Positions 1-26,959 of a DNA stretch of 26,959 nt are shown piece after piece. This DNA is from Verrucomicrobiota bacterium (lineage in GTDB: Bacteria > Verrucomicrobiota > Verrucomicrobiia > Verrucomicrobiales > DEV007). Location: NCBI GenBank assembly GCA_045046875.1, contig JASFYY010000082.1:1-26959 (forward strand), given 5' to 3'. A program made the translations under genes and the position numbers. Below the pieces are notes generated by a model, which saw only the letters and a program-made list of their open reading frames with translations, was not told where the DNA came from and did not search any database. Positions within the stretch are counted from its first letter, which is position 1, and every line of letters begins with the position of its first letter.

Positions 1-23
1 CGCCATCACCGCCTCCCTCCATT

Positions 24-1463: not shown

Positions 1464-1616
1464 TCAACACCCCGCCCAACCCGCACCGTCCAGCGAAAGG
1501 CTGAAGACAAATAAGGCACAGGTGAAAAAGCGCCGCACCATCGGGCAAGCTTCGTTTTGCGCAAGGTTTTTCCCTGACGGGCTTCGCAAAACCTTCAACT
1601 GCTTGTCCATCAAACC

Positions 1617-2171
1617 CTAAGGAGCCTTGCGCTGATCCATTTTATTCGCCGGATGTTGCTCTGTTTTACCATGCACCCGCACCGCCACCCACTCCGCCAG
1701 ACGCTGCCCCAACATACGGCAATTCGCCTGCGCTTCCGGTTCACGAGGCTCGCGCACCGCTACCGCTCCGTAGTGCGCCGTCATCATCTCCTCCGCGTAG
1801 TCGGTCACTCCGAAAACCAAAAAGCCGAAATTCATCAACACCGTCAAGATCGACTGGCAAGCCAACTCCATACCTCCTCCCCAGCCACCCGCTGTCGAAA
1901 AAGCACAGCCAATCTTGCCATCCACCTTCATCCACTGATCCGCCATCGTTTCATCCCAGAATCGTTTCATTTTCCACGACAAAATCCCCATATTAGTCGG
2001 ACTGCCCACCGCCAGGCCGTCACACCAGAGCACATCCTCCGCGTTCGCTTCATCTACCGATTTTATCCGCACCTCCGTATCCTCGATATGGCGCGCGCCC
2101 TCAGCCACCAGTTCAGCCATTTTTTTAGTATTGCCAGAGGCCGAATCAAAGAGCACCAGTATTTTATTCAT
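1617..2171 (-). CDS. WrbA-like flavodoxin / NAD(P)H:quinone oxidoreductase
   Basis: FMN P-loop SASGNTKKMA, GSPTNMG and GKIGCAFSTAGGWGGGME. ATG at 2171 (MNKILVLF) is preferred over the ORF-track start at 2198. Confidence 0.85.
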   Translation of the reverse strand: MNKILVLFDSASGNTKKMAELVAEGARHIEDTEVRIKSVDEANAEDVLWCDGLAVGSPTNMGILSWKMKRFWDETMADQWMKVDGKIGCAFSTAGGWGGGMELACQSILTVLMNFGFLVFGVTDYAEEMMTAHYGAVAVREPREPEAQANCRMLGQRLAEWVAVRVHGKTEQHPANKMDQRKAP

Positions 2172-2236
2172 ACCTTCGGATAAATGTACCGCCCTCAAAG
2201 GTCAAGCTCCATTCCTCCTCAGCCATCTCCATAACC

Positions 2237-4414
2237 ATGCCCAAATCCCCCATCACTCCTTTTTTAATTTTCGGCTTACTTTTCATCGCCACCCACCTCT
2301 GCGCCGCCGCACCCGCGGACCCTTACGAAAATTATCTCAAAAACAGCAAAGACTTCCATCGAGTCAAACAAGATAAAAACTGGATCCTCAAAGCCTGGCC
2401 CTCGTGGCTCTATATGCCGTGGTATTACCAATGGGGCATCGGACACAAGCAGGCAGGTGCGGACTTCAGTAAAAAGCACGGTTATAACGGCGCTTTTCTT
2501 GACCACGGCGACACTCAAAACCTCGCTTGGATCGAAAAGAACCAACTGCGTTTTTACATGGATCACACCGCCGGCAAAGGAAGCCTGTATCTTTATAATA
2601 AAAAACCACAGGATAAAACACGACTGAAAAACGAATTGCCTGGCAACGGTGTGCGCCCCGTCGCCCTGAATGCCTCCACCACACAGGACCTCAAAAAACA
2701 AATATTTCACAATATCGAGCAAGTCCGCCACTCCCCACAACGCGCCGCTTATGCCCTCGATGATGAAATATCCAGCGGCTCCTTCGTCCGCCCCTGCACC
2801 TGGCGACTGATCGAGGACTTCGCCCCCTACCTCTCCTGGCTTGATGGAATTTACGGGAAGGGCAATAAACCCGACTACAAAAGACCTTGGATCACCTACG
2901 ACGACCTGCGCAAAAAACTCCCGAACTGGACGCTCGCCGAATTCGACTGCGGACAACTAATGGATCAGTGGACTTTCAACGACGCTTATTGGGCCAACTA
3001 CCTCGGGGATTTGGTCGCCTACTCTAATTCCATCGATCCCGCTACGCCCTGCGGTTTTGTCGGCGGCCAGTCACCCAGTGCCATGGGCGGCTACGACTAC
3101 GCCCGCCTGATGCGCAAAATTCAATTTATCGAAGCTTACAACATCGGCAGTTCACAAGCCGTGATCCGCTCCTTCAATCCACACAACGCCCTACCCACAG
3201 TCACCACGCATTTCCATCGCTCCGTCAATGACACCATCTGGCAAGCCTGGTATTACCTCGCCCAAGGAAACCGTGGTCACATTGGTTGGGTGCAGGATTG
3301 GTTCGATGGCAAAAAACCCAAAAGTTGGCATCAAGCCGTCGCCCCTCACTATCTCGAAATTGCAGAAAAAATCAGCCCCCTGCTTGCCGATGCCGAATGG
3401 CTACATGACGGCGTCGCCATCTATTACAGTCACCCTTCCATCCAAATGAGCTGGATCCTTGACGCCGAAGCCCACGGCAGCACCTGGCCCAACCGCAATA
3501 GTGATCACCGCCTCGGAACTTCACACCTGGTTCGCAAAGCCTGGGAGAATATGTTACGTGACAGTGGCTATCAATTCTCTCATTTGAGCTATATCGATCT
3601 GGTTCAAAATGAACAAGCTCTGGATAAGTTTAAAGTTCTCATCCTGCCTGCGACTTACTGCCTCTCTGAGGCCGAAGCCAGACGCATCCGGGCATTTGTC
3701 CTCCGCGGCGGCACCGTGATCGCCGATTTTCTACCCGGCGTTTTTGACCAACACGGCCGGGGAAGAAACACCGGAGGCGTTCTGGATGATGTTTTTGCCA
3801 TCCAGCATCAAAGCAGTTGGAAAGCTACAGATATATTCAGTGTTCATCTGTGGGTGGAGGCCGATCAAGAGGCGAACTTCTACTTTAAATCATACGAAGA
3901 CTTGCTAGACAAAAACAACAACCCTCTTCGTCATCCTGCCGGATTCGCCCGGGCGGCGCGTAACCTCGAGAGTGATAGCAGCCATTCTTATGGCGAGGGC
4001 AAAGCCGTATTGATGAATCTCTCACCGCAGTGGTACCACGCTCTCCGAGGACAAGGAGCCAAAGCCGCTGCCTCTCGATCCGTATTCATGAAACATCTGG
4101 GCGAAGCCGGGATCCAATCCCCGGTTCGGCTCAGTAATAATTTGGAAGAGGTCTTCGGCTATGAAATCACCTACTGGAAAAAAGACAACCGCACCCTGCT
4201 CTTCCTCATCATGAATCCGGAAGTCACGGGCACTTCTACTGGTGGCGGAAATTCACAGGGATTAAAAACAAAAAAAATCACTGTCACCTTGGAATTCCAA
4301 AAACCTGTTGATCAAGTGCGCAACGAGCTCAATGGGAAAATTCTTGGGGACGGCAAAAAATTCACCATTGACTGGATAACAAACAAAGCCGTCGTTTTGT
4401 CATTCAACGAGTAA
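2237..4414 (+). CDS. Secreted glycoside-hydrolase-like protein with beta-galactosidase (GH42-type) trimerisation domain
   Basis: N-terminal signal peptide (PFLIFGLLFIATHLCA-A). Central region has candidate catalytic acids (ALDDEIS, QFIEAY). C-terminal FKVLILPATYCLSEAEARRIRAFVLRGGTVIADFLPGVFDQHG is typical of GH42 trimerisation domains. Confidence 0.65.
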   Translation: MPKSPITPFLIFGLLFIATHLCAAAPADPYENYLKNSKDFHRVKQDKNWILKAWPSWLYMPWYYQWGIGHKQAGADFSKKHGYNGAFLDHGDTQNLAWIEKNQLRFYMDHTAGKGSLYLYNKKPQDKTRLKNELPGNGVRPVALNASTTQDLKKQIFHNIEQVRHSPQRAAYALDDEISSGSFVRPCTWRLIEDFAPYLSWLDGIYGKGNKPDYKRPWITYDDLRKKLPNWTLAEFDCGQLMDQWTFNDAYWANYLGDLVAYSNSIDPATPCGFVGGQSPSAMGGYDYARLMRKIQFIEAYNIGSSQAVIRSFNPHNALPTVTTHFHRSVNDTIWQAWYYLAQGNRGHIGWVQDWFDGKKPKSWHQAVAPHYLEIAEKISPLLADAEWLHDGVAIYYSHPSIQMSWILDAEAHGSTWPNRNSDHRLGTSHLVRKAWENMLRDSGYQFSHLSYIDLVQNEQALDKFKVLILPATYCLSEAEARRIRAFVLRGGTVIADFLPGVFDQHGRGRNTGGVLDDVFAIQHQSSWKATDIFSVHLWVEADQEANFYFKSYEDLLDKNNNPLRHPAGFARAARNLESDSSHSYGEGKAVLMNLSPQWYHALRGQGAKAAASRSVFMKHLGEAGIQSPVRLSNNLEEVFGYEITYWKKDNRTLLFLIMNPEVTGTSTGGGNSQGLKTKKITVTLEFQKPVDQVRNELNGKILGDGKKFTIDWITNKAVVLSFNE

Positions 4415-4484
4415 AAACCTTAGTCCCTTTTCCTCCCCCAAGTTCAAATCACTCATTCTCCCAGCAATCAAAATCCCATTCTCT

Positions 4485-6230
4485 ATGCCTTCCTCCAAAC
4501 CACGCTACCGAGCCTTCATCAGCTACTCGCATCGCGACGCGAAATGGGCGAAGTGGCTGCATCGCTCTTTGGAGCACTACGTGGTGCCCATTGATGCTTT
4601 TACTGAAGGCAAAAAACCGAAATCCGATGGGTCGACAAAAAATCGCCGCCTGACACCAGTATTCCGTGACCGGGATGAACTGCCAGCATCGGGTTCACTC
4701 GGCGATACCATTCATCATGCACTCGCGTCGTCAGAAAATCTGATTGTGCTCTGCTCACCGGATTCCGCCGCATCACAATACGTCAATGCCGAGATTGATA
4801 TTTTCCGCACACTGCATCCTGACAATGAAAAGAAAATCTACGCTTTGATCATTAAAGGCGAACCCCCTGCGTGTTTTCCTCCAGCCTTGCTCTCAACCGG
4901 AGCCGAGCCCATTGCCGCCGACGCCAGGGAAACCGGTGACGGCAAAACGGACTCGAAACTGAAACTGATCGCCGGCCTGCTGGGCGTGGGTTTTGATCGC
5001 TTGAAACGACGTGAAGCCAAACGCCAGCGCAACCGGTTAATGTTAATGGTTACCGTGATATCGACGGTAGCGGTGATAACATCGCTGCTATCCTTGTGGG
5101 CATTAAAATCAGAACAAGAGGCCAATGAAGCGCGGGATCTCGCAGAGCAACGTCAGTTGGAAGCGGAAAAAGCCCGACGCAAAGCTCAAGATCTGGCTAC
5201 TTTTATAGGTCGGAAAATGCTTGAGACCATGGACAGACGAGGCAATTCCAGAACCTTGTTCGAGGTGGTGGAACGAATGGACGCTTATTACAAAGATATC
5301 CCCGTAGCGAATTTGAGCCAGGAAGAAAAGTCCTATTATATGGTAGCCATGATTCAAGGAGGGGAGCAAGCTCTGGCAGAACTTAATCTTGACGCGGCGG
5401 ATGACTATTCCAATCGAGCCCTTGCATTGAGCAAACAAATGGATTTGAAGGATTCCGATCCATTTTTCAGCTCGGCGGCCTTATTACGTGTTTCTTTTTT
5501 AATTAAAAAAAATACTCCGGACAAAGCCGGAGACATTATAGCCCTACTGGATGAGGCCATAACAAAATCAACCCCGGAGGATCAATTTAACTTATTGATT
5601 CAGAAAGGCAGTTTCCTGAAAAATGAAGGTGATTTTGAAGAGGCTCTTTCCTCTTATATCCAAGCGGATAAGTTGGCCAAACACATTCTAACCGAAGAGG
5701 GCATGGGAGTTAAAAGTATCATGCTGATTCGAGGGCTCTTGCATAACAACTATTTTGAAACCGGCCTTGTCTATGGAAAATTAGGCCGCAAAGAAAAGGC
5801 AAACACCTGTTACCTACGCGCCATCAATGGAGCAAAAGAACAACTGCGACGCAGACCTGGCAATACCGACGCCATGCACATTATTTTCATGGCATCGGGG
5901 GCCTTGGGGCATTCATTCTTGGCTGACGGTAAAAATGGTGAAGCCATGATAGTTTTCCACAAACGTGAAGAGATTACAAAAAAAATACTCGACCTGAAGC
6001 CTGACAACCCTATTTATCAACAAGCTCTCATCAGCGCCAGAATTCTCGAAGCCAGACACAGCCCAAAATTGAGCATTAAGGAAAAAACCCAACTTTACGA
6101 AAAAGCCTTGGAAGATTTCAAAGCTATTCCAAAAGCTGATGACGTCCTGTATGGCGTGGACAAAGAAACCCAGGTAGAAATCCGTGAAAAGTGGATGCAA
6201 GAGCTGGGGGAATTGAAAGCCCTACAGTAG
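4485..6230 (+). CDS. TIR domain - transmembrane helix - TPR protein (paralog 1)
   Basis: TIR motifs YRAFISYSHRD, FRDRDEL, LIVLCSP and YVNAE (candidate catalytic Glu103). Basic stretch KRREAKRQRNR precedes a hydrophobic helix (~5037-5105). Degenerate TPR-like helices follow (GDFEEALSSYIQA, YGKLGRKEKANTCYLRA). Confidence 0.88.
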   Translation: MPSSKPRYRAFISYSHRDAKWAKWLHRSLEHYVVPIDAFTEGKKPKSDGSTKNRRLTPVFRDRDELPASGSLGDTIHHALASSENLIVLCSPDSAASQYVNAEIDIFRTLHPDNEKKIYALIIKGEPPACFPPALLSTGAEPIAADARETGDGKTDSKLKLIAGLLGVGFDRLKRREAKRQRNRLMLMVTVISTVAVITSLLSLWALKSEQEANEARDLAEQRQLEAEKARRKAQDLATFIGRKMLETMDRRGNSRTLFEVVERMDAYYKDIPVANLSQEEKSYYMVAMIQGGEQALAELNLDAADDYSNRALALSKQMDLKDSDPFFSSAALLRVSFLIKKNTPDKAGDIIALLDEAITKSTPEDQFNLLIQKGSFLKNEGDFEEALSSYIQADKLAKHILTEEGMGVKSIMLIRGLLHNNYFETGLVYGKLGRKEKANTCYLRAINGAKEQLRRRPGNTDAMHIIFMASGALGHSFLADGKNGEAMIVFHKREEITKKILDLKPDNPIYQQALISARILEARHSPKLSIKEKTQLYEKALEDFKAIPKADDVLYGVDKETQVEIREKWMQELGELKALQ

Positions 6231-6266
6231 AAAGCCTAAGGTGGGACGCAGAAAATCCCGAAGAAC

Positions 6267-6295
6267 TTGAAAAAAAGAATTTTTAGTAGCATTAT
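6267..6295 (+). promoter_or_regulatory. Possible sigma70-type promoter upstream of the cyclase gene
   Basis: TTGAAA-17 nt-CATTAT in an AT-rich intergenic spacer, ending 12 nt before the ATG at 6308. Confidence 0.3.
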
Positions 6296-6307
6296 CTGGA
6301 GCAGTCC

Positions 6308-8254
6308 ATGACAAAAATGAAAACCAAAGTCGACGATTTGCTGAGAACGATCCAGTCTCCCTCGACCAGCATACACGAGCTGCGGGACATTTGGGAATCC
6401 CGCTCTCTTGCCATCTGGCTGAACCACCCGGAACTCCACGCCGCCCTCACCCTTCGTTTACAACATCGCAGTCACCCCTTCTGGGTCTTTGAAATCACTG
6501 ACGAAGGCAAACAATGTGAGGCCTGCAACGATGAAATTTTCACTCAACTAACACGAACTGCAGCCCTCAGCCTGGCCCGCACCGGCGCCACCCGCAGCGC
6601 CATGGAAATGCTGAACAAGCTATTGGAAAAAGGTTCCCCGCAAGCGGAAACATTCTGCCTGCTCGGTCGTTTACAGAAAGATGTAGCTTACACCGCCAAA
6701 GCCGGGGAGAAACGTAAGCAACACCTGCAATCCGCTTTTTCCTATTATTCGCGTGCGGTAGAACTTGAGCCCTATAACTATTACCCACTGATCAATACCG
6801 CAACCGTCGCCCTTCTACTCGGCAACAAAAACGAAGCCTCTATCGTAGCTGAGCAGGTAATTGCACTCTGCCAAAAACAAATCGAGGAAAACGACGACTA
6901 CTGGCTATTGGCCACGCTGGCGGAAGCGCAGCTACTGCTGGGAAATACCGACAAAGCCGGCGCGCACTACCGCGCAGCAGCCGAAAAAGTTGGCCATGAA
7001 TACTCCAGCCTGCAATCCATGCGTAGCCAGGCCCGGCAAATCCTTAATGCGCAGGATCAGGATCCCTCTTTGCTCGATTCCACCTTCCTAATGCCTCGGG
7101 TTGTCGTATTTTCCGGACACCGCATTGATGCAGCCGAGCGCAGCAAACCACGTTTCCCGCCATCCGCGATTGCCGCCGTATCGAGGAATATTTCAACCGC
7201 TGTCGCCAACTGGACCCCCATGATCGCCTACGCTTCCGCCGCCCCGGGAGGAGACCTGATTTTTTGTGAAGCTGTTTTAAAAAACGGCAACGAGCTGCGC
7301 CTAGTGCTGCCCTTTGATTTGAAAAATTTTCGAGGCTACATTTTGCAAAGCGCTGACGCCGATTGGTTGCAACGTTTTGACTGGGTAGCCGCCAGAGCAA
7401 CCAGCATCGTAACCGCCTCTTCTGGAAAACACCATGAGCAGATCCAGGGATCTGCCATCTACGACTTTGTCAATCGTCTCATCCTTGGCCTGGCTCGCTT
7501 CGAATCCCGTTTTTTGGAAACCTCTTTACAGACCATCGCCTTGTGGGATCAAGTCGGCCTAACCGTCACCGGAGGAACTGCCGACTGCATCGCGCTGTGG
7601 CAGAGTGTTGGCCTAACGGTCGATACCATCATCGATCCTTCCGGAGCCCCCCTCCTGCCAGTCCACCAAAGCCCGGATTTGATTAAACTTGATCGATCGA
7701 GTTTACAAAACAAAAACGAGCAACAAATCAAAGCCATCCTTTTTGCTGACATCGTTGGATACAGCAAATTAGAGGATTACGACCTGCCTCGTTATTACGA
7801 CAGCTTCCTGAAACCTATTGCAGAAAGCATCGCCCGCTTTGATTTCGCCCCCTTGACCTCCAACTGCTGGGGAGACGCCTTCTATTTTGTCTTCGACAGT
7901 GTTCGGGAAGCCGGGCTTTTTGCCTTGGAGTTCCACCGGGCCATCGAACAACAAGAGTGGCTGCCACAAAGCACGGGGAAAAAACTCCACTTCCGGATCG
8001 CCTTGAATGCCGGACCGGTTTTCGAGCTCCGCGACCCCGTCACCGGCACCCTCAACTTCACCGGACAACACACCAACCGAGCCGCCCGAATCGAACCCAT
8101 GGTCCAGGAAGGGCAAATCTACGTCAGCGAATATTTTGCCGCCCTCGCCTCCGTCGAGCAAATCGACGAGTTCGCCCTCGACTACGTCGGCTACCGCCCT
8201 CTGCCAAAAAAATACGGTAGCAGCCGCGTCTTCATCCTACGCGCCCCCCAATAA
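6308..8254 (+). CDS. TPR (TPR-S/DUF4071-like) + SLOG-like domain + class III nucleotide cyclase
   Basis: TPR region: ETFCLLGRLQKD, YYPLINTATVALLLG, DDYWLLATLAEAQLLLG, LQSMRSQA. SLOG/YspA-like Rossmannoid region ~7097-7630: VVVFSGHRID, YASAAPGGDLIF, LVLPF, ALWD..GGTA. Cyclase ~7727-8250: LFADIVGYS, WGDAF, RIALNAGPV, GQHTNRAARIE, GQIYVSE. Confidence 0.88.
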   Translation: MTKMKTKVDDLLRTIQSPSTSIHELRDIWESRSLAIWLNHPELHAALTLRLQHRSHPFWVFEITDEGKQCEACNDEIFTQLTRTAALSLARTGATRSAMEMLNKLLEKGSPQAETFCLLGRLQKDVAYTAKAGEKRKQHLQSAFSYYSRAVELEPYNYYPLINTATVALLLGNKNEASIVAEQVIALCQKQIEENDDYWLLATLAEAQLLLGNTDKAGAHYRAAAEKVGHEYSSLQSMRSQARQILNAQDQDPSLLDSTFLMPRVVVFSGHRIDAAERSKPRFPPSAIAAVSRNISTAVANWTPMIAYASAAPGGDLIFCEAVLKNGNELRLVLPFDLKNFRGYILQSADADWLQRFDWVAARATSIVTASSGKHHEQIQGSAIYDFVNRLILGLARFESRFLETSLQTIALWDQVGLTVTGGTADCIALWQSVGLTVDTIIDPSGAPLLPVHQSPDLIKLDRSSLQNKNEQQIKAILFADIVGYSKLEDYDLPRYYDSFLKPIAESIARFDFAPLTSNCWGDAFYFVFDSVREAGLFALEFHRAIEQQEWLPQSTGKKLHFRIALNAGPVFELRDPVTGTLNFTGQHTNRAARIEPMVQEGQIYVSEYFAALASVEQIDEFALDYVGYRPLPKKYGSSRVFILRAPQ

Positions 8255-8306
8255 CCGCAGCGCCACTCCCACCTCAATCCCAGCGCTTCACAAGAATAAA
8301 AATGCA

Positions 8307-8408
8307 ATAGGTCTGACCCTTTTTATAGGTCTGACCCTTTTTATACTCTCAGGACCCTACTTTCCTGCCACAAGCATTAAACTACATGAGGCCTGACCCT
8401 TCTTTATA
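8307..8408. repeat. Tandem 18-bp direct repeat with palindromic GGTCTGACC core plus a degenerate third copy
   Basis: ATAGGTCTGACCCTTTTT at 8307-8324 and 8325-8342 (exact tandem); AGGCCTGACCCTTCTTTATA at 8389-8408. Confidence 0.85.
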
Positions 8409-8442
8409 TTTAGACTGACTTTTCCAGCTCTAATTTTTTCAT

Positions 8443-8472
8443 TTGCGCCCCCCTCCCCCCCACTGCTAGTCT
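8443..8472 (+). promoter_or_regulatory. Putative extended -10 promoter giving a leaderless or near-leaderless GAF transcript
   Basis: TTGCGC-18 nt-TAGTCT with TG at the extended -10 position (TGcTAGTCT). ATG follows 6 nt later with no Shine-Dalgarno. Confidence 0.4.
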
Positions 8473-8478
8473 TTTGTT

Positions 8479-9027
8479 ATGGATCCGAACGAGGCTCTCT
8501 ACCATAAAATCACTAAATTTGCGCAAAATGCTGACCTCTATGGTTTTATGCAGTGGCTGCCAAGTTCCACCCCCGCCCTGCTCAAACAAACGATCCACCA
8601 TATGGGCGGGCATGAAGGCAGTATCTGGATCGTGGATGCCCCCAAACAGCAACTGGTGACTTGTTACAACACCTTGGAATTACAACGGCATGTCTGTCAG
8701 GATCTCAGCTCCGGCCTGGTTTCCAAAGCTTTCAACGAAGAACGCGCAGTTCATCACCAAGGGGTGCACCGTTTCAAGGACAGCTCGGGCAGTGTTGATG
8801 AGACACTTGAGCAAAAAACCCAACACCAGATCAGTGTTCCTTTTTACATCTGCGGCCAATTATGTGGCGCTCTGAGTGTCGTGCAGCTTTCCAGTGATTT
8901 CCACAGCGCCCCGCGCGAAGATGTTCCCTGGGGGTTCAAAGACGACGCCATTCCCCTTTTGGCCGCCGCCGCCACAGTCATCGCCGAGGGCATCGAGGCC
9001 AAGTGGCAATCAGGCTCTGATAAATGA
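8479..9027 (+). CDS. Stand-alone GAF domain protein
   Basis: 182 aa with GAF pattern GSIWIVD..QQLV, GLVSKAF, ISVPFYICGQLCGALSVVQ and terminal F.DDAIPLLAAAATVIA helix; no output domain. Confidence 0.78.
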   Translation: MDPNEALYHKITKFAQNADLYGFMQWLPSSTPALLKQTIHHMGGHEGSIWIVDAPKQQLVTCYNTLELQRHVCQDLSSGLVSKAFNEERAVHHQGVHRFKDSSGSVDETLEQKTQHQISVPFYICGQLCGALSVVQLSSDFHSAPREDVPWGFKDDAIPLLAAAATVIAEGIEAKWQSGSDK

Positions 9028-9047
9028 TGGCTTGAAAAGCGCGCGCC

Positions 9048-10145
9048 TTACGGTAAATGCTCGGGTTTCACGGTTTCTTCCGCGTATATCCTGCCGAGCT
9101 CTAGCAACTTTGGCACGGACGCAATATCACTCAATTCAAAAGGATGAGTGCTGCCGGTTTCCCGACGGCAGTCTTCCTCCTCCTCATCTGTGAATTGGTG
9201 CTGATAGCGGCAATAGAGGAATTTCTCCAATCCCCCTTCGGTCAAAGCATCCAGTTCCCCGTCGATTGACGCACCGCAGATAGTTTTGCCCAATACCCGG
9301 CATAATTTATCCTGCTCAACCAATACTGAATCCATCAGGCCCTTCAGCGCTCTGAGTCCACCTCCCAATACATTGACATGCCCCAACTCGCCCGGCGCAT
9401 AAGTGATCGAAACCCGTCCCGTCCCCACCGAACACAGGAACAGCTTGTCCGCCCCGGTCGGCATATTCATATTGTAAGCTGGTAAAGTAGCCGCCAGATA
9501 CATCGCCACCGAAGGATTGTTGTAAGGTGACACCGCTCCATCAATAAACTCAAATTGCTGCTCGGTGCCGTCCGGAGAATGCAACTTAACCAATTCGGTA
9601 GGGAAAAAAGCCGGTGCCGCCGCGCTCGCCCTGATCAACTGCCACAAAGGAATATCGAGATTAGTGGGGATTTCATCATTCGGGTTGCGTTTATTATAAC
9701 GTGCTTCGGGATGATTAGTGATCGGCCAAGTCGAACCGGTGGTGCCATTGCGCATCACCAACATCAAACAGGTTTTCAACTTTTTTGATCCCAGCGTCAT
9801 CGGCTCCCCCGCCGATTCCTCGAAATTTTCCTTCAACAAACGAGTAAAAGCTTCCGACCCATAAAAACTACGCCACGATTGCCAGAAAGGTTTACGCCGG
9901 AAAACAATCGGACCCAGTTGTTCGTAACTTTCCCGAACCTCCCTCACCGACATTCCTTTAGACAACATCGCTGCAATAATGCCGCCGGTACTATTGCCTC
10001 CAATGAAATTAAAATAATCAGCTAGCACAAAATCCGGATTCTCCTTCTGATAACGCTCCCGCAGGATGTTTTCTATACGTTCCAGAATGGCAACGCTGAA
10101 TATCCCGCGGATGCCTCCGCCGTCGAGTGAGAGAAGTCGGTTCAT
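9048..10145 (-). CDS. Patatin-like phospholipase
   Basis: Oxyanion motif LSLDGGGIRG, nucleophile elbow GNSTG (G-x-S-x-G), RASAAAPAFF, catalytic Asp in FIDGAV, YNNP, SVGTG. Confidence 0.92.
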   Translation of the reverse strand: MNRLLSLDGGGIRGIFSVAILERIENILRERYQKENPDFVLADYFNFIGGNSTGGIIAAMLSKGMSVREVRESYEQLGPIVFRRKPFWQSWRSFYGSEAFTRLLKENFEESAGEPMTLGSKKLKTCLMLVMRNGTTGSTWPITNHPEARYNKRNPNDEIPTNLDIPLWQLIRASAAAPAFFPTELVKLHSPDGTEQQFEFIDGAVSPYNNPSVAMYLAATLPAYNMNMPTGADKLFLCSVGTGRVSITYAPGELGHVNVLGGGLRALKGLMDSVLVEQDKLCRVLGKTICGASIDGELDALTEGGLEKFLYCRYQHQFTDEEEEDCRRETGSTHPFELSDIASVPKLLELGRIYAEETVKPEHLP

Positions 10146-10267
10146 ACTTTAGCTAAATTTTGATTACAAGTAACAACAGGAGATCCCCCACCGCACCGCT
10201 TTTTTCTATAAAAATCAATTGGCTTGAACCTCGGGATAGCCTTTCTTATCGGCAACTCACCCAACTT

Positions 10268-12439
10268 ATGCCTCACGACAAACCACACTACCGGGCCTTC
10301 ATCAGCTATTCGCATCGTGATGCAAAATGGGCGAAGTGGTTGCACAAAGCCCTGGAACAATACCACGTCCCCATCGACGCCTACCCGCCTGGCGACAATC
10401 TGCAAGATGATGGCTCGAAAAAAAGCCGACGCCTGACCCCGGTGTTCCGCGACCGCGACGAACTGCCCGCCTCTGGCTCGCTGGCGGATACCATCCAGGA
10501 AGCGCTTGAGGCTTCCGAAAACCTGATCGTTCTCTGCTCCCCCAACTCCGTCGCTTCACAATACGTGAATGCCGAAATTGAAATATTCCGTGGTTTGCTA
10601 CCTGAGAATGATCAAAAAGTTTACGCCCTGATCGTCGACGGTGACCCGCCCGATTGTTTTCCTGCGGCGCTGACGGCCGGCGGTGCTGAACCCATCGCCG
10701 CTGACGCCAGGGAAGAAGGCGATGGCAAAGCGGATGCCAAGTTGAAATTGATCGCAGGGTTGTTAGGGGTTGGTTTTGACCGCCTGAAACGGCGCGAGGC
10801 TACCCGCCAACGCAATCGTTTATTGATCATGGTATCGGTGATTTCTGCAGTTGCTGTGATGACTTCCTTTTTAGCCGTGTGGGCGCTGAAGGCAGAAAAA
10901 GAAGCGACCAAACAAAAGGTGGTAGCAGAGCAGCAACGTGAACTCGCGGTAGAATCTGAAAAAGAAGCCACCACCCAAAAAGAACGTGCCGAGCAACAAC
11001 GAGAGTTGGCTAAACAATCAGCCAAAGAAGCGACCGCAGCCAAAATCGTAGCTGAAAAACAACGGGAACTGGCCGTACAATCGGAGAAAGTCGCCACTAC
11101 TGCCAAGGAGCACGCAGAGCAACAACGCGAACTAGCCGAACAAGCGACCCGTGAAGCCAAAGCCGTGTTAGCCTTTTTTAATGCCAAAGTCCTCGCCGCC
11201 GCCAGACCCAAACAACAAGACGGAGGGCTCGGCATTGACGCTACGATTCGCGCAGCTATCGATGCCGCAGAGCCTCAAATTTCCACTGCTTTCAACGATC
11301 AGCCAGCAGTGGAAGCCACCATCCGTACCGCCATCGGCACTTCCTATTGGTATCTCGGTGAAGCCCAGACTGCCATCCCCCAACTCCAGCGGGCGCTGGC
11401 TCTACGGGTCAAATTACTCGGACCGAAACATCTGGATACACTCAAATCAATGACCGTGCTGGCCAATTCCTATCAACGGGTCGGACGCAGGGAAGAAGCC
11501 CTCGAGCTACGGGAAAAAACTTTGCAGACGGAAAAAGAAATCCTCGGCCCCAAGCACACCGACACCCTCACTTCGGCGAGTAATCTGGCCGTTTCTTATC
11601 GCGGAGCAGGACGCTTCAAAGAAGCTCTGGCCTTGGATGAAGAAACGCTCAAGCTACGCAAAGAGGTGCTCGGACCAGATGACCCTGCTACTATTTCGTC
11701 CATGGGCAGTCTGGCATCATCCTACAGTTCCCTCGGCCGACAAGAAGAAGCTTTAAAGCTTCGTGAGCAAGTGTTGGAACTTTTCAAAAAAGCCCGCGGA
11801 GAAGGCCACCCCGACACGCTCAATTCGATGCAAAATCTGGCTAACTCCTATGAGACGCTGGGACGCGAAAAAGAAGCGCAAGCCTTGCGCGAACAAACCC
11901 TTAAACTGCGAATCGAAGTGCAGGGCCCCGAGCACCCGGACACCCTGCGAGCCAAGTTCAATATGGCCAATTCATACATCTCTGCCGGACATTGGGATCA
12001 AGCTATAGCTTTACACCAATCCACATTGCAATCGATGATCCAGGTTCTCGGCCCGGACCACCGCGAGACCATCGGCACCATGAATAGTCTGGCCTATTCC
12101 TACTGGAAGACCGACCAGCTGGCTAATGCTGAAAAACAATACCGACAGCTGTTGGCCGCACGCAAACGACGAGAGGACATCGACTTGGGATTTTACCACG
12201 CTCAATCAATATTGGGTGAAATTCTTGCTGAACAGAAAAACTACCCTGAAGCTGAAACCTTGTTACTTGCGGGATACAAAGGAATGGAATCCTTGCTTTC
12301 CAAAACCAAAGGCCGTGAGCGTTTGAAATTTGCAATCGAACGCCTGGTGACCCTTTACCAAAAATGGGACAAACCTAAATCCACCTCCCTCTGGCTGAAA
12401 AAACACAAAGCCCTGGAAGCGCCTGCGGCTACACAATAG
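10268..12439 (+). CDS. TIR domain - transmembrane helix - coiled stalk - 42-aa TPR array protein (paralog 2)
   Basis: Start at ATG 10268 (MPHDKPHYRAFISYSH) aligns with the paralog 1 start. Same TIR motifs including YVNAE, then a TM helix, 21-aa repeats and kinesin-light-chain-type TPRs (LGPxHxDTLxSxxNLAxSY). Confidence 0.9.
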   Translation: MPHDKPHYRAFISYSHRDAKWAKWLHKALEQYHVPIDAYPPGDNLQDDGSKKSRRLTPVFRDRDELPASGSLADTIQEALEASENLIVLCSPNSVASQYVNAEIEIFRGLLPENDQKVYALIVDGDPPDCFPAALTAGGAEPIAADAREEGDGKADAKLKLIAGLLGVGFDRLKRREATRQRNRLLIMVSVISAVAVMTSFLAVWALKAEKEATKQKVVAEQQRELAVESEKEATTQKERAEQQRELAKQSAKEATAAKIVAEKQRELAVQSEKVATTAKEHAEQQRELAEQATREAKAVLAFFNAKVLAAARPKQQDGGLGIDATIRAAIDAAEPQISTAFNDQPAVEATIRTAIGTSYWYLGEAQTAIPQLQRALALRVKLLGPKHLDTLKSMTVLANSYQRVGRREEALELREKTLQTEKEILGPKHTDTLTSASNLAVSYRGAGRFKEALALDEETLKLRKEVLGPDDPATISSMGSLASSYSSLGRQEEALKLREQVLELFKKARGEGHPDTLNSMQNLANSYETLGREKEAQALREQTLKLRIEVQGPEHPDTLRAKFNMANSYISAGHWDQAIALHQSTLQSMIQVLGPDHRETIGTMNSLAYSYWKTDQLANAEKQYRQLLAARKRREDIDLGFYHAQSILGEILAEQKNYPEAETLLLAGYKGMESLLSKTKGRERLKFAIERLVTLYQKWDKPKSTSLWLKKHKALEAPAATQ
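10892..11143 (+). repeat. Four tandem 63-bp (21-aa) coiled-coil repeats inside TIR paralog 2
   Basis: AEKEATKQKVVAEQQRELAVE / SEKEATTQKERAEQQRELAKQ / SAKEATAAKIVAEKQRELAVQ / SEKVATTAKEHAEQQRELAEQ. Confidence 0.9.
11414..12169 (+). repeat. Six 126-bp (42-aa) TPR repeats
   Basis: Units begin LLGPKHLDTL, ILGPKHTDTL, VLGPDDPATI, ARGEGHPDTL, VQGPEHPDTL, VLGPDHRETI at 42-aa spacing. Confidence 0.9.
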
Positions 12440-12475
12440 GCATATCCATATTTTGTGAACATGTTCGCCAGACAC

Positions 12476-12509
12476 AAAAAAGGCGGGTTAAAAACCCGCC
12501 TTTCTTTTT
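12476..12509. terminator. Bidirectional intrinsic terminator
   Basis: AAAAAAGGCGGGT-TAAAA-ACCCGCCTTTCTTTTT: GC stem with A-tract before and T-tract after, between convergent genes. Confidence 0.88.
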
Positions 12510-12532
12510 GAACCTATCGTCTGATTTCAGAA

Positions 12533-13018
12533 TTAAATGCCAACGTATTCAGCGTTAACTGAACCAAATTTCACAACCTCACCCTTTTTAGGAGTCTTCT
12601 CCAGCTCATAAGCCGAGCTGTTCACCATTTTATCCTTTTTGGTGTCGTAGAGCATCACCGTATCGGACTTGGTTGCCGGCACGGCTACGTAACGGGTCTT
12701 AGGTGCTGATTTTGATTTGCTGGCCACTTTCTTCCTCACCTTGGCCACTCTCGCTGCTGCAGCAGCTTGCTCACGTTCGGTAGCTTTTCTTTTCTGATAA
12801 GAATAAACGATCACGGCAGCTGTCACGCCCACCGCAGCCCCGATCAAAGCTGATTCAGTTGACGATGCCCCGGCATGCCGGGCAATCGCACCCGACCCTA
12901 ACCCGGCGATCCCACCTACCACGCCCGCCGAAGCGAGTGGGTCCATGGTCTCACAACTAGTGAGAGAAATTGAAACAAGAAGGGTGGCTGCTGCTATTTT
13001 TTTTGGGAGTGCTTTCAT
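12533..13018 (-). CDS. Putative lipoprotein with glycine-zipper-like hydrophobic segments
   Basis: Start MKALPKK at 13018; lipobox SLTS-C; GVVGGIAGLGSGAIA / ALIGAAVGVTAA; basic C-terminal domain. Confidence 0.65.
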   Translation of the reverse strand: MKALPKKIAAATLLVSISLTSCETMDPLASAGVVGGIAGLGSGAIARHAGASSTESALIGAAVGVTAAVIVYSYQKRKATEREQAAAAARVAKVRKKVASKSKSAPKTRYVAVPATKSDTVMLYDTKKDKMVNSSAYELEKTPKKGEVVKFGSVNAEYVGI

Positions 13019-13116
13019 GTTAACAGCAAGCGGATCACAAATGCAGGGTGCTGTCAATACAAGGGAGTAAAAAAGCTGCTCTTATATTTCCCAAGCCTGC
13101 CCATATTCTATGACCA

Positions 13117-14184
13117 TCACCCCAACAAAGTTACAATGCGTTTCTCTTTGGCACTAAGCACCGCCGTGTCCACAATCTGCTGGCCAATTCTCGAAATCTC
13201 CACGCTCAAAGGCCCTTCGATCTCACTGTTTGTTTCCAAACAATGCAAAAAATACTGCACCGGATTAGCAAAAGGCGCTTCCAAATCGGGCACCTCCACT
13301 TCAAACCCTTCGGGACGCTCGCGTGTTTGCACCCGCAAGGTTTTTTCATATTCGTAACAACTCAGTGTGCCCTCACTGCCAACCATCACAAACCCCGTTT
13401 TTGGTTGCGGCTGTAACGTCCACGGATCGGTAAAAGTTCCCCAACGGGTTTCAAAGGTCGACAAGCCGCTCGCATAGCGTGCCGTGGTCACACTGTGTTC
13501 GTCCACCTCCAAGCCTTCGGGCTCATCCACCATACAGCTTACTTCGATTGGTTTTTTTCCGCCGAGATGCCAAGTGCCCAAAGTCGTCCCATATCCCATA
13601 TAGTCCATCAAACTGCCTCCGCCTTCGGCTTTTTGATAAAACCACGAAGCCGCCTTTTCCTCAGCACTAGGGTCATGGGTATTTTTATCAGCGCCATGGC
13701 GTAGCGGACCACTGTTTCCTCCGTAGCTATGCACTTCCAATACTTCGCCGATCAAGCCCTCTTCAATCAATTGGTGCGCCTCCACCTGCACCGGCGCCCA
13801 GCGCAGAGGCCAGTTGATCGCCAGTTTTTTTCCGCTGGCCGCCATCACTTCGATCATGCGATCCGCATCCTCCAGTGAGGCTGCAAAAGGTTTTTCCATC
13901 AAAATATGCACCCCGTAAGCAGCCACCTTCTCCGTCCATTCTGCATGACGAGCCGCCGCAGGACAAAGAATAACCAGATCCGGGCGAGTTTTTTCCAAAC
14001 ACTCTTTATAATCACTGAACACCTGATCCGGTGATAGCGAAAAATTCTTTGCCGCCTCCTGCATCCGCTCTGGAATCTCATCGGCGATGCCCACAAGCTC
14101 CGCATCGGGATGTTCATGCACCATGCGCAGCAAGTCCCCCATATGAAAGTGATCAAAATTTATTCCTACAATTTTCCAAGCCAT
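13117..14184 (-). CDS. Gfo/Idh/MocA family oxidoreductase
   Basis: HILMEKPFA, LIEEGLIGEV, GGGSLMDYMGY. ATG at 14184 preferred. Confidence 0.9.
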   Translation of the reverse strand: MAWKIVGINFDHFHMGDLLRMVHEHPDAELVGIADEIPERMQEAAKNFSLSPDQVFSDYKECLEKTRPDLVILCPAAARHAEWTEKVAAYGVHILMEKPFAASLEDADRMIEVMAASGKKLAINWPLRWAPVQVEAHQLIEEGLIGEVLEVHSYGGNSGPLRHGADKNTHDPSAEEKAASWFYQKAEGGGSLMDYMGYGTTLGTWHLGGKKPIEVSCMVDEPEGLEVDEHSVTTARYASGLSTFETRWGTFTDPWTLQPQPKTGFVMVGSEGTLSCYEYEKTLRVQTRERPEGFEVEVPDLEAPFANPVQYFLHCLETNSEIEGPLSVEISRIGQQIVDTAVLSAKEKRIVTLLG

Positions 14185-15503: not shown

Positions 15504-16253
15504 TTACTCACCAGCTTCAATATTTTTATACCGATAAGGCCGATACCCCAGACCCTTCACATAATCGACGGATATCGGATGCTTCAACACCTTCCAACTC
15601 GGCGGAGAGCCCGTTTCGTAAGCAAGGAAGCTCTTACGCTCACTGCCCAAGAATTTCACAAAAAGCAAACAGTGCACATTGGATTGATTCACAATATCCC
15701 CAGGTTGGAGTTCTTTGAATGAAGCAAGCTCGTTAGAAAGCGCCGGCAATTCCCTTGTCGAAAACGATCTCTCTAGCCGCCAGCAACGAGAGATAAATCC
15801 CGAGCAGTCTATTCCGCAGGCCTGCAAACTCACCCCGTCATCCAATAAACGCCTTTTCTCCGAGGAATAAATATCTCCGGCATAGAAACCTGACGACAAT
15901 TTTTGTTCAAACGATACAGGCGTATCAAACCCACCCCACATATACGGAATACCGGTATTTTTTTTATTTGAAATCCACCAACCGGGGCGCTCCGCCCCTG
16001 GGTCAGTATAGGCAATATCCGGTGTATCCACCCGAATTCCACCGTCATCAACACCGTGAAAAATATTTTTCTCCGACGGCACCCAACGATGCGAGTGATA
16101 GGCTTCTGCTATTTTTAAAACATCCTGCCTGGAAACAGAACTCCTAGACTCGAAACTAAGCCCTTTCCCAGAATACTTAGAAACACATGAGCCAATTAAA
16201 AAAAATACAATAAGTGAAGCAAAGCGAAGCATGAAAATAGAATACACCTTCAC
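15504..16253 (-). CDS. NlpC/P60-like (papain-fold) lipoprotein, putative peptidoglycan peptidase
   Basis: Lipobox-like LIGS-C; GIPYMWGG, GIDCSGFISRCW (catalytic Cys), LQPGDIV, VHCLLF (His), AYET. Confidence 0.72.
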   Translation of the reverse strand: MKVYSIFMLRFASLIVFFLIGSCVSKYSGKGLSFESRSSVSRQDVLKIAEAYHSHRWVPSEKNIFHGVDDGGIRVDTPDIAYTDPGAERPGWWISNKKNTGIPYMWGGFDTPVSFEQKLSSGFYAGDIYSSEKRRLLDDGVSLQACGIDCSGFISRCWRLERSFSTRELPALSNELASFKELQPGDIVNQSNVHCLLFVKFLGSERKSFLAYETGSPPSWKVLKHPISVDYVKGLGYRPYRYKNIEAGE

Positions 16254-16744
16254 CTCTTCCGCAATTCCTCTACCATCTGTTCGGCACGAACAAGTTTTTG
16301 CGTAGAAGCATCTAGTCTTTGAGCCAATAACTCAGCCAAGAAGCGATACATGCCCGCGTAATAAGCATTCCGGGCTTCTGCATTTAGCCCGTCGAGAAAA
16401 TCTTGTTTCACCTTAATACAATACACCTGAGTCTCGGCCACAATAGTCGCCGTCCGTTGCCCCTCCTTAAGCAAAGCAATTTCACCCAACAACTCGCCAC
16501 CTCCAGAGGCGGCTCCGATGACCGACCCATCCTTTTGAACGCGAACCTTGCCTTTCAATAAAAACAGAAGATCCCGTTCATCCGCCCCTTCCGCGATCAC
16601 CACATCCCCGGGCTCGCAATCGAGCATCGTCGTGCTCGACAACATTTCCTCAACAATCTCCGGTGCCAGCGTCTTAAAAAAAGGGATCTCAGCAACGGGA
16701 GCAGGCACTGTACCTGCACGATAATTCAGCGGGTATTCTTTCAT
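16250..16744 (-). CDS. Stand-alone cyclic nucleotide-binding domain protein
   Basis: PGDVVIAEG, LLFLLKGKVRV and phosphate-binding cassette GELLGEIALL...QRTATIVA; no HTH. Stop overlaps the NlpC/P60 GTG start by 4 bp. Confidence 0.88.
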   Translation of the reverse strand: MKEYPLNYRAGTVPAPVAEIPFFKTLAPEIVEEMLSSTTMLDCEPGDVVIAEGADERDLLFLLKGKVRVQKDGSVIGAASGGGELLGEIALLKEGQRTATIVAETQVYCIKVKQDFLDGLNAEARNAYYAGMYRFLAELLAQRLDASTQKLVRAEQMVEELRKR

Positions 16745-16790
16745 AATCAATGACTCCGTTGTTTACTCAAAGGGAAGAAGCTCCCAAGCT

Positions 16791-26562: not shown

Positions 26563-26959
26563 TCACTCCTCGCTCCCACCTTGCAACAACCCTGTCCCTA
26601 AATCCCGCAATACCCGCAATTCCCCCCACTGCGCCCCCCGCATCTTTCTACCGCCATCCTTGCGTCGCTCCCCAAAACACTCTCGCCGCCCCGCAAAAAA
26701 CTCATCCACAAATCCCTGACTCCCCAACACCGCCCCATCAGTAAAATACCGCACCCGACAGCGTAAAGCTGCCGCCAAAGGCAATTTCCCACCCGCCCGC
26801 AACACCTCCTCAATCTCCTCCTGAGTAAATCCCCCCTTCCGCCGATCCACTCCGTCCGGTGTAACCCCACCCAAGCGCTCCTCCCCCGTCCCATACAACA
26901 AACACCGATATTCCGCCTCCACCGTCCGCCAAGCCACCCTTTGCCGCCCCATCACCGCA
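26563..26959 (-). mobile_element. 3' end of a REP-associated tyrosine transposase (RAYT/IS200-like), truncated by the window edge
   Basis: LRCRVRYFTDGAVLGSQGFVDEFF...FGERRKDGGRKMRG recalls the C-terminus of verrucomicrobial RAYT-like transposases. The HUH/Y catalytic part lies outside the window. Confidence 0.65.

Follow-up and report, generated by a model that had tools for sequence, protein, structure and literature searches.

The window, as the whole 26,959-nucleotide stretch of Verrucomicrobiota DNA analysed here is called, has five open reading frames lying side by side. In order they encode a TIR protein (TIR1; 4485..6230, plus strand, 581 aa), a protein with TPR-S, SLOG and cyclase domains (6308..8254, plus strand, 648 aa), a GAF-like protein (8479..9027, plus strand, 182 aa), a patatin (9048..10145, minus strand, 365 aa) and a second TIR protein (TIR2; 10268..12439, plus strand, 723 aa), for which the match to TIR1 gives the ATG at 10268 as the probable start. 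The five adjacent genes of the preliminary description are real, with catalytic residues intact, and the aspartate codons at 7748 and 7874, the TIR glutamate E103 and the GNSTG motif at patatin residue 50 are all where it placed them. They are not, however, one operon: the patatin gene is tail-to-tail with the GAF gene and head-to-head with the TIR2 gene, so the block has at least three transcription units. Is it then the 'island' that had been proposed? Its G+C is host-like (0.50–0.55), the exception being the TIR1 ectodomain (0.44); cyclase, patatin and the TIR family are each present in all six genomes of the genus; and no further defence genes were found among the 15 flanking proteins, where the sole match is to a 166-aa protein, in its cNMP-binding part. 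An island is therefore not supported, and the cluster is neither a single operon nor a mobile island. Vertical, single-copy, host-like inheritance without defence neighbours is atypical for anti-phage systems. A bidirectional terminator had also been noted, and a terminator-like hairpin at 12476..12506 (11 pairs, 12479–12503) does separate TIR2 from a convergent lipoprotein-like gene, though the hairpin scan overall is near chance (18 found against 12.2 ± 3.7 in shuffles). Short intergenic repeats occupy 8289..8404 (two 36-nt copies 80 nt apart and an 18-nt tandem); run X4 has an 18-nt deletion inside them, at 8307, and pieces resembling them are on four other contigs.

Both TIR proteins match TIR_2 and TPR in Pfam. 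TIR1 consists of a TIR domain (about residues 8–168), a single transmembrane segment, a coiled coil and a variable TPR ectodomain, and TIR2, which is 72% identical to TIR1 over 232 aa in its TIR part, of a TIR domain, a single transmembrane segment, coiled-coil repeats and a TPR_12 ectodomain related to that of a kinase-TM-TPR-like protein on contig C113. The one hydrophobic helix per protein, at about 186–204, has counterparts in 130 of the 133 anchorable relatives (of 150 listed), all 130 having the more positive net charge on its TIR side; both proteins would thus be single-pass, with the TIR domain cytoplasmic and the TPR ectodomain outside. The catalytic-type glutamate E103 is invariant (28 of 28 sequences). 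This TIR-TM family is very large (2,127 clusters at 50% identity, E <= 1e-30), and the ectodomains of 40 scanned relatives are TPR in 20 and WD40 in 15, with none in five. What is outside can be exchanged: in G005 another TPR domain stands in place of the stretch 5177..6242 (plus strand, G+C 0.44), blastn against a 95–96% identical genome leaves an alignment gap from 5176 to 6243, and other upstream alleles are seen as loose ends at 6239 (run X4) and 6249 (run X1). The ectodomain has been swapped between near-identical strains; comparison inside one allele gave dN/dS of 0.16–0.21, with no non-synonymous excess. A tandem copy is deleted in G001, and in G005 TIR2 has an in-frame stop.

For the 648-aa protein Pfam reports TPR-S, MAP3K_TRAF_bd and Guanylate_cyc, and the structure model (pLDDT 94.2) resolves the order as TPR-S (about 1–255), a YpsA-type SLOG (262–450) and a class III nucleotide cyclase (468–648); it lacks the RyR domain that many relatives have at the N-terminus. 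The TPR-S score is 61.9 bits (PF20308, cut-off 27.6), and this part matches the ASK1 central region (Z 22.5, rmsd 3.0, 249 aligned). The SLOG assignment rests on the fold match to YpsA 2nx2 (Z 17.9, rmsd 2.6, 158 aligned), which bears out the SLOG-like domain originally suspected. In the cyclase, D481, D523, N590 and R594 are in place, N519 stands at the base-selecting Lys/Glu position, and the signature N-x-W-G-D is family-wide; the fold is closer to CyaB and Cya2 (Z 20.8 and 19.5) than to pyrimidine cyclases (Z 14.3–15.1). The product is probably a 3',5'-cNMP other than canonical cAMP. What might read it? The genome has ten cNMP-binding matches; one, a stand-alone protein encoded at 16250..16750 (minus strand), outside the coordinates first described, is a weakly supported candidate receptor, and in G029 a cNMP-binding protein 31% identical to it adjoins the cyclase together with a metallophosphoesterase.

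Structure comparison puts metazoan TIRs of the scaffold and SARM1 kinds closest to the TIR model (Hydra TRR-2 Z 14.8, MyD88 14.6, SARM1 13.9), with ThsB behind (12.1). Could the TIRs then be scaffolds, or NAD-depleting effectors, with the SLOG, alone or with TPR-S, itself making or destroying a nucleotide signal? In the passages drawn on here, the cADPR isomer of BcTir/Tpr is reportedly made by the TPR protein and not by the TIR, and YpsA-family SLOGs are predicted to be sensors or signal generators (PMC6459960). Such an arrangement nevertheless seems very unlikely for this locus, given the invariance of E103 and a cyclase protein with no Pfam match to a glycosidase (CMP-hydrolase) domain and with nothing but helical TPR in residues 1–250, and the Z differences of 2–3 among TIR folds say nothing on function.

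The patatin has GGGIRG at 9, GNSTG at 50 and DGA at 202, matches CapV structures at E 3e-16, and adjoins TIR2 in all six genus genomes; 794 bp separate its gene from that of the cyclase protein. TPR-S-patatin (L161) and patatin-SLOG (L204) fusions occur among its relatives, and in G021 and G028 the patatin adjoins a DUF4062-like-nSTAND1 gene. On C162 a third TIR gene is adjoined by a second patatin remnant. The GAF-like protein is another matter, its Pfam match being weak (19.3 bits, cut-off 28.6). In all 11 family relatives fetched the GAF gene is followed by an S8 subtilase gene, a partner it is without here. It adjoins the patatin gene in five of the six genus genomes, no copy was detected in G004 (91% complete), and its family is near none of 80 patatin loci. 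The GAF gene appears to be an orphan left from a GAF-subtilase unit, with no role in a relay.

Within the genus the five-gene block is intact in three of six genomes, four of the genes are adjacent in G002, and in G003 and G004 a break parts cyclase from patatin, lying in G003 at the repeat junction 8289..8404; the G003 cyclase has no adjoining TIR. The locus is thus two separable modules, TIR1-cyclase and patatin-TIR2. Values of dN/dS against G001 (patatin 0.04, cyclase protein 0.13, TIR domain of TIR1 0.14) indicate purifying selection. In the same comparison dS is 0.46–0.58 for TIR1 (TIR domain and ectodomain) and the cyclase, 1.05–1.26 for three flanking genes, and 1.5–2.1 for GAF and patatin.

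Beyond the genus, neighbourhoods were counted for the best 80 of 552 cyclase loci and the best 80 of 563 patatin loci, sets that include many kin, so that the counts overstate independence, and with TIR profiles seeded from these loci themselves. So counted, 42 of 80 cyclase loci have a TIR-like gene within 8 kb and 33 have one within 1.5 kb, which supports the proposed link from TIR to SLOG and cyclase, and none was detected by these profiles at the other 38; the family of TIR1 and TIR2 itself is near 13, of which 12 are outside the genus (Acidobacteriota, Verrucomicrobiota). Of 80 patatin relatives, 36 have an adjoining TPR-S and/or SLOG protein, which is within 700 bp in 35 cases and on the same strand in 34; such proteins are present at 19 of the 27 loci whose two flanks each reach at least 1.5 kb. 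None was found at 44 of 80 (contigs are often short, with 5 kb reached at 41 of 80), nor within the stretch fetched around the five closest non-genus patatins (49–54%), and G021 and G011 have zero matches to the TPR-S/SLOG profile. Checked for co-localisation, the block as a whole is confined to those three genus genomes and was never seen outside the genus among 80 cyclase loci, while the pairwise links extend across phyla. That unrelated genes have loosely piled up in one genus, sharing no pathway, might be argued from this confinement, from the mixed orientation, from the repeats at an internal junction and from the breakage in two of six genomes. We regard it as the least probable of the alternatives: the cross-phylum clustering of TIR with cyclase and of patatin with TPR-S/SLOG is not chance, and the 5.59 Mb genome has one TPR-S gene (that of the cyclase protein), three patatins and four TIR_2 genes, a background of only about one such gene per 1–5 Mb, of which one, one and two are within these 8 kb, a concentration exceeding chance.

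The second tier of the preliminary proposal fares less well. CBASS patatins are activated by cyclic nucleotides, which lends some appeal to a serial cascade in which the TIR product acts through SLOG on the cyclase and the resulting cNMP, perhaps through GAF, on the patatin; the adjacency of five genes in three genus genomes and four in G002, the place of GAF beside patatin in five of six, and a patatin relative (E < 1e-40) elsewhere in four of the seven non-genus genomes with a full-length cyclase all accord with it. Yet a patatin is near one of 80 cyclase loci, that one from this genus, and thus near 0 of 79 outside it; no cyclase domain is present in the 36 patatin-linked TPR-S/SLOG neighbours; the GAF family keeps company with S8 peptidases and not patatins; and the modules are apart in G003 and G004. 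The cascade is accordingly improbable.

How does the locus relate to named systems? The preliminary view that it fits none stands, no match to a named system having been obtained. Predicted TPR-S-centred immune systems stem from Burroughs and Aravind 2020 (J Bacteriol e00365-20), here known through 10.1101/2023.05.26.542521, 10.64898/2025.12.03.692087 and PF20308; the first of these, citing the 2020 data, lists TIR-, YspA-, Patatin-, LSDAT- and calcineurin-Tpr assemblies, and the Fig. 1 legend of PMC6459960 has A/G_cyclase among YpsA family contexts. With its TPR-S core, two linked TIR genes, YpsA-type SLOG and patatin, the locus is, as far as those citing passages describe them, a variant within these TPR-S/TIR/YpsA/patatin systems, differing in the fusion of TPR-S and SLOG to an N-x-W-G-D cyclase and in TIRs that are single-pass receptors with swappable ectodomains; it is not Thoeris I or VIII, Pycsar or CBASS. 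In the parts consulted, Thoeris type VIII (ThsB with ThsI) and BcTir/Tpr, anti-phage by experiment, likewise pair a TIR gene with a TPR-bearing partner believed to sense cADPR, but ThsI/BcTpr bears a CMP-hydrolase/glycosidase domain, in contrast to the cyclase output, added SLOG and membrane-anchored TIR here. Thoeris I and III resemble it in a TIR product read by SLOG, with the catalytic-type glutamate, and type III, as partially consulted, in several TIRs with one SLOG effector; here, by contrast, the SLOG is nearest YpsA and flanked by TPR-S and cyclase, with no SIR2 on it and no PADLOC ThsA (SIR2-SLOG) hit, the genome has two SIR2_2 matches, both off this contig, and the TIRs have a transmembrane segment. 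Pycsar and Pucsar share a class III cyclase with altered base-selecting residues in a putative immune setting, but here a receptor module is placed upstream of the cyclase, whose gene is flanked by those for GAF, patatin and CNBD-free TM-TIR-TPR proteins; there is no CNBD-TIR or 3TM/TM effector beside it, and a CNBD-only protein is 8 kb away. Placement outside the PycC clade rests on two points, no PADLOC PycC match at E <= 0.01 and PycC-type structures ranking below physiological cyclases. From CBASS CapV, whose fold and catalytic motifs it shares, the patatin differs in that it scores 99.6 bits with NF041079, whose cut-off is 200, and no CD-NTase/SMODS (PF18144) match was obtained in the window or the 94.7% complete genome.

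The overall idea of a conflict-type nucleotide-messenger locus is upheld. The wiring to which we give about an even chance has one TIR-made, NAD-derived, receptor-driven ADP-ribose messenger with two parallel outputs, cNMP and phospholipase. A cue outside the cytoplasm would bind the variable TPR ectodomain, and the clustered receptors would activate their TIR domains to convert NAD+ to a derivative of ADP-ribose; E103 and the Thoeris analogy make cADPR or one of its isomers the likeliest. This messenger would bind the TPR-S and/or SLOG pocket and switch on the cyclase, whose cNMP may be read by regulators such as cNMP-binding proteins; the same messenger, or the liganded TPR-S/SLOG protein, would in parallel activate the patatin, which could then damage or remodel membranes, with the GAF remnant outside the relay. 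The most likely role is defence or self/non-self surveillance at the envelope. Available passages of 10.64898/2025.12.03.692087 give precedents both for two effectors in one operon sharing one TIR messenger and for a TPR-bearing effector responsive to cADPR. As far as the sources seen extend, earlier predictions already cover the parts and most of the pairings, and the proposed novelty is the receptor-to-cyclase wiring.

In animal Toll-like and IL-1 receptors a repeat ectodomain, one transmembrane segment and a cytoplasmic TIR follow each other. The likeness is of architecture, an analogy with no descent claimed; here the TIR is N-terminal, TPR or WD40 replaces LRR or Ig, and the catalytic-type glutamate is kept. 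A bacterial counterpart of that pathway, with periplasmic TPR/WD40 sensors feeding a TPR-S/SLOG-gated cyclase relay and phospholipase in parallel, can be entertained only tentatively, and it is similarly doubtful that the exchangeable sensors detect an attacker or non-self cell and the N-x-W-G-D pocket selects a non-cAMP cyclic mononucleotide. In known Thoeris systems a soluble TIR acts straight on a toxic effector; if true, the Toll-like reading would bring to bacteria a messenger-to-messenger relay and outside-in TIR signalling. The locus is compact enough to clone for probing two proposals, that swappable ectodomains may let bacterial TIRs signal from outside the cytoplasm and that a TPR-S/SLOG-gated cyclase with an unusual base pocket may convert an ADP-ribose messenger to a cyclic nucleotide. 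As TPR-S corresponds in bacteria to the regulatory region of ASK1, a ligand for it would inform animal stress signalling.

Would the same chemistry serve physiology instead, as envelope or surface sensing in which the TIRs behave as do the kinase-TM-TPR receptors with which they share ectodomains, the cNMP adjusts transcription or proteolysis and the patatin alters lipids without causing cell death? Presence throughout the genus, housekeeping surroundings and host-like G+C point that way, as do two kinds of cyclase neighbour, a family of sigma-70 region 2 proteins and S8 peptidases, each at 12 of 80 loci, the cNMP-binding protein and phosphoesterase in G029, an Atlas cluster in which the TPR-S/SLOG/cyclase architecture is fused to BTAD and cNMP-binding domains, and a TIR2 ectodomain 51% identical over 339 aa to a C113 protein with a kinase-like N-terminus. 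We consider it unlikely, though with some claim to attention; against it are fast ectodomain replacement, paralogue gain and loss and pseudogenes, the relatives' neighbours SLATT, nSTAND1, DUF4062 and LSDAT, typical of conflict systems, and the phage protection given by a TIR plus TPR-core operon in the portion consulted of 10.1101/2023.05.26.542521. On C162 a third TIR gene is adjoined by a second patatin remnant.

The five ORFs listed in a preliminary description of this DNA are, by ORF calls, all present. Pfam finds TIR_2 and TPR both at 4485-6230 (TIR1, +) and in the ORF ending at 12439 (TIR2, 10268-12439, +), TPR-S, MAP3K_TRAF_bd and Guanylate_cyc at 6308-8254 (the cyclase protein, +), Patatin at 9048-10145 on the minus strand and, below threshold, GAF at 8479-9027 (+). 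As patatin is encoded on the minus strand, the five-gene block is not one operon. TTG at 10160 was rejected as the TIR2 start. Is the set then a chance assembly? Among 60 relatives searched, all five other genomes of the genus have the cyclase, patatin and TIR family and four of them have GAF; the order is complete in the own genome (G000), G001 and G005, is cyclase-GAF-patatin-TIR2 in G002, is divided in G003 into a solitary cyclase and, at a second site, GAF-patatin-TIR2, and in G004 TIR-cyclase and patatin-TIR2 are separate. Patatin-TIR2 is thus unbroken in 6/6 genus genomes and TIR-cyclase in 4/6, and while such division is what a chance grouping could also give, that reading is very improbable: the cluster is real and non-random. 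With G+C host-like and presence in 6/6 in the genus, a mobile defence island was rejected. Of 401 genomes sampled evenly across the phylum, nine, own included, have the cyclase family at E <= 1e-30, and full-length relatives outside the genus often have an RyR domain at the N-terminus.

In an AlphaFold2 model of the 648-aa cyclase protein (alignment of 105 rows, pLDDT 94.2), residues 7-306 match the central regulatory region of ASK1 (Z 22.5, rmsd 3.0, 249 aligned), residues 262-450 match YpsA (Z 17.9, rmsd 2.6, 158 aligned) and residues 468-648 match CyaB (Z 20.8, rmsd 2.6, 175 aligned). ThsA SLOG was absent among the 50 structure matches listed for the model, a PDB sequence search gave no SLOG match for the protein, and Foldseek returned cyclases alone. 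The catalytic residues are intact in nearly all of the 105 rows (D481 102, D523 102, R594 104), and so are those of the SLOG motif (G270 105, H271 103, D316 103, T424 100) and of TPR-S (R121 99, K124 103, Y147 105, N163 104, W199 105); conservation like that of catalytic residues is as expected of ligand pockets, which both parts may therefore contain. A reading with the enzyme roles reversed is distinctly improbable. At the base-selecting position adenylyl cyclases have Lys and guanylyl cyclases Glu; here, in the register from the 3mr7 alignment, it is N519 in 94/105 rows, followed by W521 in 99/105, which leaves the product uncertain and makes canonical cAMP questionable. Complex prediction with residues 1-450 and the patatin scored 0.00, which has no bearing on binding. 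One Atlas cluster, made up of cyclase proteins assigned to phages, scores 0.86 against the 648-aa protein and is a lead only.

What accompanies the two enzymes elsewhere? On the cyclase side, 552 genome loci were confirmed; among the best 80 of them (one being a G002 contig), a TIR_2- or DUF4062-type gene is within 8 kb of the cyclase in 42 and within 1.5 kb in 33; the figure of 42 may be low as TIR profiles overlook some TIR-like neighbours. G000 itself has four TIR_2 genes in 5.59 Mb, a density at which about one would be expected in all of the 1.25 Mb examined; the control is rough, since other genomes may be TIR-richer and many loci are kin. In the same 80, nSTAND1 is near the cyclase in 23, the TIR family of this window in 13 (blastp), S8 peptidase in 12, the GAF family in five and patatin in one, namely the genus locus. 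For the patatin side the best 80 of 563 loci from metagenomes were used; identity ranges over 36-69%, and 41 of the 80 are at least 5 kb. At 36 of these the cyclase-family profile matches a TPR-S and/or SLOG part (SLOG 31, TPR-S 20) and at none of the 36 the cyclase part; the match is within 700 bp of patatin in 35/36, on the same strand in 34 of the 35. Thirty chosen patatin neighbours include, by Pfam, X-TPR-S-SLOG proteins, SLOG-SLATT, LSDAT, TIR and a TPR-S-patatin fusion, and one patatin matches the SLOG profile at its C-terminus. TIR-type genes, by our own profiles, are at 11 of the best 80 of 563 loci. Counting against the patatin-TPR-S/SLOG link, no TPR-S/SLOG gene lies beside any of the five closest patatins from outside the genus; two of them (in G021 and G028) adjoin DUF4062-like-nSTAND1 repeat proteins, and in two of the five genomes tested the cyclase-family profile has no match. 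As each enzyme is common without the other, and G000's only TPR-S gene is 794 bp from patatin, cyclase and patatin appear, on gene context, to behave as exchangeable outputs of one receptor type.

This bears on the serial cascade first proposed, in which a TIR product acts through SLOG on the cyclase and its cNMP, possibly via GAF, activates patatin. The five genes adjoin in three genomes of this genus; the cascade is improbable. Its GAF relay was rejected: the GAF family is at 0/80 patatin loci (best 80 of 563), and in 11/11 relatives fetched, of 34 non-own family matches, an S8 subtilase gene comes directly after GAF. That partner was not found among G000 ORFs, nor in 5/5 genus genomes by a search without positive control. 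The conserved pair is exemplified by L213:5056-6442 and ten other loci (L211-L221); GAF matches occur in 25/36 family genomes, and in Chthoniobacterales and Pyrinomonadaceae loci both the pair and a sigma-70-like gene are close to the cyclase.

TIR1 and TIR2 have residues 1-230 in common (72%) and diverge beyond. A hydrophobic helix at about 186-204, preceded by a basic stretch, is present in 130 of the 133 anchorable sequences among 150 listed relatives from a very large family (2,127 representatives at E <= 1e-30). As all 130 have more positive net charge on the TIR side, the positive-inside rule implies a cytoplasmic TIR and a C-terminal domain predicted to lie outside. Scanning 40 relatives (every second row of the list, cut to size) gave ectodomains with TPR in 20, WD40 in 15 and no named domain in five. 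E103 is invariant in 28/28 TIR sequences; a PDB sequence search with TIR gave no close match (best E 0.058).

The ectodomain is replaced rapidly between strains. G005 aligns at 95-96% over 1-5176 and 6243-13312, and the gap between is a different TPR domain; G001 has a G000-type TIR gene and then a second TIR gene with an internal deletion, ending in a G005-type tail. Immediately upstream of the cyclase, loose contig ends occur in sequencing runs X4 and X1, that of X4 matching the G005 tail; X4, by its label a hydrothermal vent metagenome, covers every one of the window's 30 bins, and one contig spans 7184-12618. Among the runs listed for this DNA none is RNA. G+C of the G000 ectodomain is 0.44 compared to 0.50-0.55 in surrounding DNA. 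Positive selection inside one ectodomain allele was sought and none found, several dS values being saturated. By simple Nei-Gojobori counts, the cyclase (dS 0.46) and the TIR domain and ectodomain of TIR1 (0.51-0.58) have diverged less from G001 than three flanking genes (1.05-1.26), GAF (1.5) and patatin (2.1), which suggests that TIR1-cyclase may have been exchanged as one unit. G005 TIR2 has an in-frame stop. Another G000 contig carries a third TIR-TM-TPR gene (C162:73-3181, locus L038; 920 aa). It lies tail-to-tail with what is left of a second patatin (~69% identical), a C-terminal part in two frames where the contig begins.

The domains themselves, catalytic and pocket residues that are intact, selection of the purifying kind, sensor exchange, and recurrent TIR-cyclase and patatin-TPR-S/SLOG pairing are observed. 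On the reading we favour, about equally apt to hold or to fail, a cue from outside would cluster the TIR receptor, TIR would produce an ADPR-type messenger, its binding by TPR-S/SLOG would release the cyclase, and patatin would be switched on in parallel. The first step is probably akin to that of Thoeris; membership of Thoeris I/VIII, Pycsar and CBASS was rejected in each case, and the initial view that no named system fits has held, PADLOC and NCBIfam assigning none. In the available text of one preprint, BcTir/Tpr is anti-phage, TPR-core partners drawn from Burroughs and Aravind 2020 are TIR, YspA, Patatin, LSDAT and calcineurin, and the word 'cyclase' is absent (10.1101/2023.05.26.542521). 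Another, in the portion available, annotates 29 putative Thoeris types, phospholipase effectors among them, and shows type VIII (CMP hydrolase + TPR) to respond to cADPR (10.64898/2025.12.03.692087). The accessible text on Pucsar divides immune cyclases into two clades and lacks the word 'SLOG' (10.64898/2026.08.12.744502); A/G_cyclase is among YpsA contexts in the sections available of PMC6459960, and those of PMC9503650, PMC11350192, PMC7159879 and PMC10907252 describe no matching system. A literature search for TPR-S with SLOG as whole words found nothing, and in the literature as available no TPR-S-SLOG-cyclase tested with TM-TIR was found; Burroughs and Aravind 2020, Burroughs et al. 2015 or preprint supplements may list the architecture. 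This window adds a predicted receptor topology whose sensors are swapped between strains, a division of the locus into two modules and a tie of patatin to TPR-S/SLOG; it also takes GAF out of the chain.

That the same chemistry serves a role other than defence is rather unlikely, with the anti-phage BcTir/Tpr on one side and, on the other, the presence near relatives of cNMP-binding proteins, a phosphoesterase, and sigma-like and S8 genes, which point to regulation as a possible cNMP route. The window has a stand-alone cNMP-binding protein at 16250-16750 (-), and in G029 (L033) an RyR-TPR-S-cyclase is flanked by a metallophosphoesterase and a 31% identical relative of that protein. The commonest cyclase neighbour in Acidobacteriota and others, at 21 of the best 80 of 552 loci, is a ~500-aa TIR_2 + DUF4062-like protein whose partner carries nSTAND1 repeats (L057:981-7075 and 20 loci like it); L224 and L225 have, by eye, N-terminal TIR-like motifs beside the cyclase. 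At L052:10076-14503 and L053:10080-14471 a 50% cyclase relative is followed by a 645-aa alpha/beta-hydrolase-like gene, which may replace patatin, and a TIR-TPR gene. Beside the RyR-cyclase of G038, GAF, S8 peptidase, radical SAM, two alike ~120-aa proteins and an ABC transporter (L035:1860-8502) resemble a modified-peptide cluster. Adjoining patatin at L200:3728-5671, L156, L171, L172 and L161 are ~650-aa proteins with TPR-S, SLOG and a ~200-aa N-terminal domain that has no Pfam match. Elsewhere in the window, the 581-aa ORF at 24093-25838 (-) presumably, from its resemblance by eye, joins a ribose-5-phosphate isomerase B domain to serine hydroxymethyltransferase. The contig-end fragment at 26563-26958 (-), which we take to be transposase-like, shares 41% identity with an ORF of 341 aa in L043 and may be connected to short repeats at 8289-8404.
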